Of a stretch of 64,000 nucleotides of DNA, positions 37,927-38,208 are shown piece by piece. Each line of letters begins with the position of its first letter. Within the stretch, counting starts at the first letter, position 1. A program made the position numbers and the translations under genes. The DNA lies in NCBI RefSeq assembly GCF_045037415.1, contig NZ_CP173438.1. The stretch is one strand, 5' to 3'. Below the pieces are notes generated by a model. It saw only the letters and a list, made by a program, of their open reading frames with translations, searched no databases and was not told the origin of the DNA. The DNA comes from Escherichia coli. GTDB taxonomy: Bacteria; Pseudomonadota; Gammaproteobacteria; Enterobacterales; Enterobacteriaceae.

Positions 37927-38132
37927 CTAACATTTGCTGTTATTTTGCACGGTTTTTGTCGGGTATGGATTTGATGATTGCTGCGCAAATGCACGCTTTC
38001 AGGGCAATAATTGCCTGATTTTTGGGCAAGATAATTAACGTTTTCGTATAGTAACAGAGTGAAAGTATTTTAAATCAAGGAATTAGATTTGTGCTTTAAT
38101 CGCAAATTGCGATCTAAATCAAATTAATTGGT

Positions 38133-38159
38133 TAAAGATAACCGCAGCGGGGCCGACAT
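38133..38159 (+). promoter_or_regulatory. sigma-28 (FliA) class 3 flagellar promoter for aer
   Basis: TAAAGATA-N11-GCCGACAT against consensus TAAAGTTT-N11-GCCGATAA, about 50 bp upstream of aer ATG. Confidence 0.6.
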
Positions 38160-38208
38160 AAACTCTGACAAGAAGTTAACAACCATATAACCTGCACAGG
38201 ACGCGAAC

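Follow-up and report, generated by a model that had tools for sequence, protein, structure and literature searches.

The patA–aer intergenic region

The window analysed in this study, a stretch of 64,000 nucleotides of an Escherichia coli chromosome, includes a 417-bp intergenic region (37792–38208) between the diverging genes patA/ygjG, on the minus strand, and aer, on the plus strand. The aer CDS (38209–39729) is an open reading frame of 506 aa that carries an N-terminal PAS domain and an MCP signalling domain (PAS and MCP family matches), and in a strain identical to the window across 37600–38500 its RefSeq label is 'aerotaxis sensor receptor Aer'. The divergent neighbour, patA/ygjG (36412–37791), lies outside the sigma-28 unit described below, scores 980 bits against the putrescine aminotransferase equivalog and is annotated likewise; its longest ORF begins at 37902 and specifies 496 aa, 37 codons more than the 459 aa read from the annotated start. 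Several complete genomes, that of strain SK1144 among them, match a 901-bp stretch spanning the region at 100% identity, and 5421 of the 5426 complete E. coli genomes match it at ≥95%, with aer and ygjG annotated there. SK1144 also runs collinear with the first 50 kb of the window, from which it differs by 518 substitutions. Across the whole window, the only non-tRNA RNA family detected at the Rfam gathering threshold was a full-length Sib antitoxin RNA (61862–62011, plus strand; RF00113, 142 bits), and no yybP-ykoY match was seen at this threshold upstream of alx (17939–18904, minus strand).

The sequence TAAAGATAACCGCAGCGGGGCCGACAT, located by exact string search, occurs once in the window, on the plus strand at 38133–38159. 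Its parts are a −35 octamer TAAAGATA (38133–38140; −32 to −25), an 11-nt spacer ACCGCAGCGGG (38141–38151) that is fixed in length while its letters vary between genera, and a −10 octamer GCCGACAT (38152–38159) with CGA at −11 to −9. This is the layout of a sigma-28 promoter, with a −35 element of the type TAAAG(TTT), an 11-nt gap and a −10 element of the type GCCGATAA in which the CGA core is intact. The −10 octamer is separated from the aer ATG by 49 nt, so the initial annotation, which placed the motif about 50 bp upstream of aer, was right in this respect. Transcription is predicted to begin at 38165 on the plus strand, which leaves a leader of 44 nt before the ATG at 38209. This +1 position is a transfer of the published K-12 numbering, since the sequence is identical in K-12, and there CGA is at −11 to −9, T is at −32 and the start lies 6 bp past the −10 octamer. 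With the start taken from the literature, the orientation and distance also agree with a sigma-28 promoter (upstream of the gene, with the start 6–8 nt past the −10 element).

Immediately upstream is a CRP site, TGCGA-TCTAAA-TCAAA (TGCGATCTAAATCAAA; 38108–38123, plus strand), which agrees with TGTGA-N6-TCACA at 8 of 10 positions and to which the CRP data for K-12 can be applied by identity. Its centre, 38115.5, is at −49.5 relative to 38165, which equals the published value of −49.5.

Sequence evidence for the sigma-28 promoter

Compared to the consensus TAAAGTTT-N11-GCCGATAA, the aer site matches at 12 of 16 positions and mismatches at four. A consensus search of the window with up to three mismatches returned no sites at all, the aer site included, and with up to four mismatches there were eight sites, against 3.2 expected by chance. 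A plain consensus match is no evidence by itself because the aer site needs four mismatches, a level at which chance matches are common. The earlier description of the site as a close match to the FliA consensus was overstated to this extent. The invariant core TAAAG-N14-GCCGA is exact at the aer site and has a total of two matches in the window (0.10 expected). The second exact core (TAAAGATCCAGGTGGTAACGCCGAGGA; 30433–30459, plus strand) is antisense within ygjI (29618–31051, minus strand) and is absent from the 52 published FliA sites of K-12.

Weight matrices were trained on published FliA ChIP-seq sites with aer left out, in a strong-site and an all-site version. By the strong-site matrix, the aer site ranked first of 127,946 positions (0.69 chance matches expected per 64 kb), and by the all-site matrix it ranked tenth in the window (2.4 chance matches expected) and 45th of the 52 ChIP-seq sites. 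The window's all-site ranking is topped by AAAGCGACCAATTAACAGCGCCGATAAA (9395–9422, plus strand), antisense in yqjA (9125–9787, minus strand), but this sequence is letter-for-letter a published intragenic FliA ChIP-seq site and belonged to the training set of that matrix. The yqjA site is weak, with a FAT score of 2, and expression was unchanged (Fitzgerald et al. 2014, PMC4183435).

Within the intergenic region of 417 bp, the matrix score of the aer site was 13.9, that of the next site on the plus strand 3.6 and that of the best site on the minus strand 4.9. The aer site is the only sigma-28 candidate in this region, and the low minus-strand score bears out the earlier statement that the patA side has no such element. 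Taken alone, the sequence is moderate evidence for a promoter, a case strengthened by the position, the orientation and the gene downstream. As a bare motif match the aer site is weak; its position and its conservation make the case convincing.

On the patA side, a sigma-54-like sequence, TGGCGCAATCCCTGCA (GG-N10-GC; 37853–37838, minus strand), stands 46 nt upstream of the patA ATG. An NtrC ChIP-seq peak has been assigned to ygjG (Brown et al. 2014, PMC4066584), and by coordinate transfer it would fall at about 37807–37887 of the window, near the sigma-54-like site. A terminator scan of the intergenic region gave one terminator-like site, which is at chance level.

Conservation of the promoter and the aer leader

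Within E. coli, the window shares its sequence from 38131 to the ATG, and its CRP site as well, with K-12 MG1655, an O157:H7 strain and WCHEC96200. Over the 417 intergenic positions it carries 10 substitutions relative to K-12, all of them outside the CRP site, octamers, spacer and leader. Closest to these elements are those at 38129 (−36) and at 38094 and 38097 (about −70), and the seven others are further upstream. At 38129 the window has T and the three strains just named have C, and this position, together with 38094 and 38097, lies in or beside AT-rich stretches that the polymerase touches through its alpha C-terminal domains. A 64-bp promoter stretch (38105–38168) is present at ≥95% identity in 5321 of the 5426 complete E. 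coli genomes; of these 5321, 4348 differ from the window somewhere within it. In strain 20Ec-P-124 (NZ_AP017610.1), a transposase gene of ISApl1 (IS30-like) adjoins the aer promoter, and there is no alignment to the window upstream of about 38130, such that the sigma-28 elements are retained and the CRP site is gone. With its CRP site removed, aer of 20Ec-P-124 is predicted to lose CRP activation.

For comparison across genera, genomes (one per species) were scanned with a back-translated pattern of the Aer PAS peptide, yielding at least 120 loci. The promoters of Salmonella and Citrobacter were outside this comparison; the locus of Citrobacter werkmanii was too short upstream. Among the matches listed were eight orthologues with 72–81% protein identity, from Enterobacter cloacae, Pseudescherichia vulneris, three other Enterobacter, an Enterobacteriaceae isolate and two metagenome bins. 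In these eight, the −35 octamer is TAAAGATA in seven and TAAAGTAA in one, the −10 octamer is GCCGAAAA or GCCGAAAT (GCCGAAAW) and ends 49–55 nt before the ATG in every case, and a CRP-like TGYGATC-N4-ATC begins exactly 25 nt before TAAAG. When E. coli is included, both the 25-nt offset between CRP site and TAAAG and the 11-nt length of the spacer are invariant in all nine sequences, while the flanks diverge and the spacer sequences are unrelated between genera. For the eight orthologues among the matches listed, then, the elements are conserved and the spacer is free to vary, as is expected of a sigma-28 promoter. Together, these features represent a clean phylogenetic footprint of the composite promoter. 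More widely, 27 of 109 Aer-like proteobacterial genes among the matches listed had a score of at least 12 in the sense orientation within the 250 nt upstream, compared to one in the antisense orientation, suggesting that sigma-28-like motifs are common upstream of Aer-like genes across the Proteobacteria.

The leader also contains conserved blocks. TTAACA (38176–38181; +12 to +17) is invariant in nine aer leaders of several genera (the orthologues being those among the matches listed), and the ribosome-binding region (38194–38203; CACAGGAC in E. coli, and in most of the other genera CAAGGGAT) looks like a CsrA-type GGA site. It could be speculated that the 44-nt leader carries an undescribed layer of post-transcriptional control, in which case the translation of aer would be tuned besides its transcription, but this is doubtful, and the blocks could equally be explained by ribosome binding or by effects of the early transcribed region on the sigma-28 polymerase. 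Rfam was searched at the gathering threshold with the whole window and at an E-value of ≤1 with 37750–38260, and neither search gave an RNA family in the intergenic region or the leader. The predicted folding of 38165–38230 is not stabler than that of shuffled sequences (z = +0.84), so neither an attenuator nor a riboswitch is indicated, and an RNA element in the leader, with neither an Rfam match nor a folding signal, is unsupported. A limited literature search for a link between CsrA and aer returned only a computational prediction in a Halomonas species.

Dependence of aer on FliA and CRP

The motif upstream of aer is the published, experimentally mapped sigma-28 promoter of this gene and is already known. 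An aer promoter in E. coli K-12 was reportedly predicted by Park et al. in 2001. The wild-type promoter was printed as TAAAGATA-n11-GCCGACAT, the same letters as in the window, in Table 1 of Hollands, Lee, Lloyd and Busby (Mol. Microbiol. 2010, PMC2859248), whose primer extension detected a single aer product, starting 6 bp beyond the −10 octamer. Their aer reporter produced 223 Miller units with CRP and FliA and 12, the background, without FliA; a triple mutation of the −10 CGA to GCT also gave 12 units, equal to the level without fliA, and single changes in the −35 element at −32, −30 and −28 gave 23, 26 and 50 units, respectively (PMC2859248). In vitro, an aer transcript was obtained from E-sigma-28 only and none from E-sigma-70, and KMnO4 detected melting from −10 to +4 by E-sigma-28 but no melting by E-sigma-70 (PMC2859248). 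Genome-wide data agree. By microarray, aer is a member of the sigma-F regulon (Zhao et al. 2007, PMC1935009), and a FliA ChIP-seq peak with a FAT score of 21 lies on the 28-mer TAAAGATAACCGCAGCGGGGCCGACATA, corresponding to 38133–38160 of the window, while aer RNA fell from 225 in motile MG1655 to 12 in a fliA deletion, a change marked as significant (Fitzgerald, Bonocora and Wade, PLoS Genet. 2014, PMC4183435). The connection of aer to the flagellar regulon through FliA, as drawn in the initial annotation, is therefore upheld by the identity of the window with the published promoter and by the agreement of reporter, mutant, ChIP-seq, RNA-seq and microarray results. Start mapping and fliA dependence, which it had proposed as checks, were already published for K-12, with a single start and a background level of expression without fliA.

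What the initial annotation left out is CRP. It read the site as a plain class 3 promoter, which stands as regards sigma-28 dependence but is incomplete because it omits the CRP site at −49.5, even though this lies within the interval that it had marked. Without CRP, and with FliA supplied in a CRP-independent manner, the aer reporter fell from 223 to 53 Miller units (PMC2859248). CRP was needed at −49.5 and failed at −41.5, −44.5, −54.5 and −61.5, shifts of its site by 5, 8 or 12 bp abolished sigma-28-dependent activation, and FeBABE mapping located the alpha subunits' C-terminal domains on both sides of CRP (PMC2859248). A promoter driven by FliA alone, at which the CRP-like sequence is irrelevant, could find some backing in the CRP-independent transcription seen in vitro at high E-sigma-28 (PMC2859248). 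This is very improbable given the drop to 53 units, the loss of sigma-28 activation when the CRP site was displaced, whether half a turn or into a class I or class II position (PMC2859248), and the invariance of the 25-nt offset from CRP site to −35 element in nine sequences of several genera.

Two other explanations are less probable still. The first makes aer a class 2 gene under direct FlhDC control (Pruss et al. 2003, via PMC4183435), with the FliA-like motif being secondary. Expression studies do find aer to be flhDC-dependent, and PMC4183435 cites the direct link as an earlier claim, but the same authors list aer among the FliA-bound sites and use it as an example of indirect regulation by FlhDC, since it 'is actually transcribed by FliA' (PMC4183435); moreover, E-sigma-28 and CRP alone suffice to reconstitute the aer promoter in vitro (PMC2859248). 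The second, that the motif is a chance likeness and that aer is run by the housekeeping sigma-70 polymerase from some other intergenic promoter, could draw on the approximately three four-mismatch sites expected by chance per 64 kb and on a sigma-70-like TGGGCA-18-TATAGT (38023–38052, plus strand), but such sites are at chance level (one found against 1.3 expected in the intergenic scan), the octamers are conserved across genera against a drifting spacer, and for K-12 it is refuted by the single start, the silence of E-sigma-70 in vitro and the dead octamer mutants (PMC2859248).

The sequence from 38108 to 38165 is thus almost certainly the single promoter of aer, dependent on both FliA and CRP. 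In the present study the elements are observed directly, along with where they lie and how they are conserved; the promoter's FliA and CRP dependence, start site and alpha C-terminal domain contacts come from published experiments on K-12 and should apply here by sequence identity. The FliA (sigma-28) polymerase would recognise TAAAGATA as the −35 element and GCCGACAT as the −10 element and start at about 38165, and the promoter would be weak alone because both octamers deviate from consensus. Cyclic AMP-CRP bound at TGCGA-N6-TCAAA, centred at −49.5, would then be needed, and would recruit the polymerase through the alpha C-terminal domains on either side of the CRP dimer.

The closest known system is the K-12 aer promoter itself (PMC2859248), the same locus, to which the window is identical in the CRP site, the two octamers, the spacer, the start and the leader up to the ATG, differing only by strain-level substitutions outside the mapped elements. 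The trg promoter, which belongs to another gene at another locus outside the window, is the sole other sigma-28 promoter of E. coli reported to be directly activated by CRP, and it has an identical spacing of CRP site to promoter (PMC2859248). At tsr, CRP is bound upstream at −132.5 without a direct effect (PMC2859248). The canonical class 3 promoters of fliC, tar, motA, flgM and tsr share with aer the sigma factor and the core TAAAG-N14-GCCGA (PMC4183435), but these promoters mostly have a full GCCGATAA and need no activator, whereas aer deviates, since no other of the 52 ChIP-seq sites has C as the sixth letter of its −10 octamer (PMC4183435).

The link between the aerotaxis receptor and the flagellar regulon has been in the literature since 2001–2010, with genome-wide data from 2014. 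The interesting biology is the co-dependence on CRP at the unusual position of −49.5, and this too is already published. With FliA and CRP both needed, aer expression would behave as an AND gate, responding to late flagellar assembly (free FliA after export of FlgM) in combination with poor carbon supply (high cAMP). The comparative footprint is the sole new material and is confirmatory. It makes a small addition, in that the composite layout of a CRP site, 25 nt, a −35 element, an 11-nt spacer and a −10 element is kept at fixed spacing in the listed aer orthologues of Enterobacter, Pseudescherichia and related genera.
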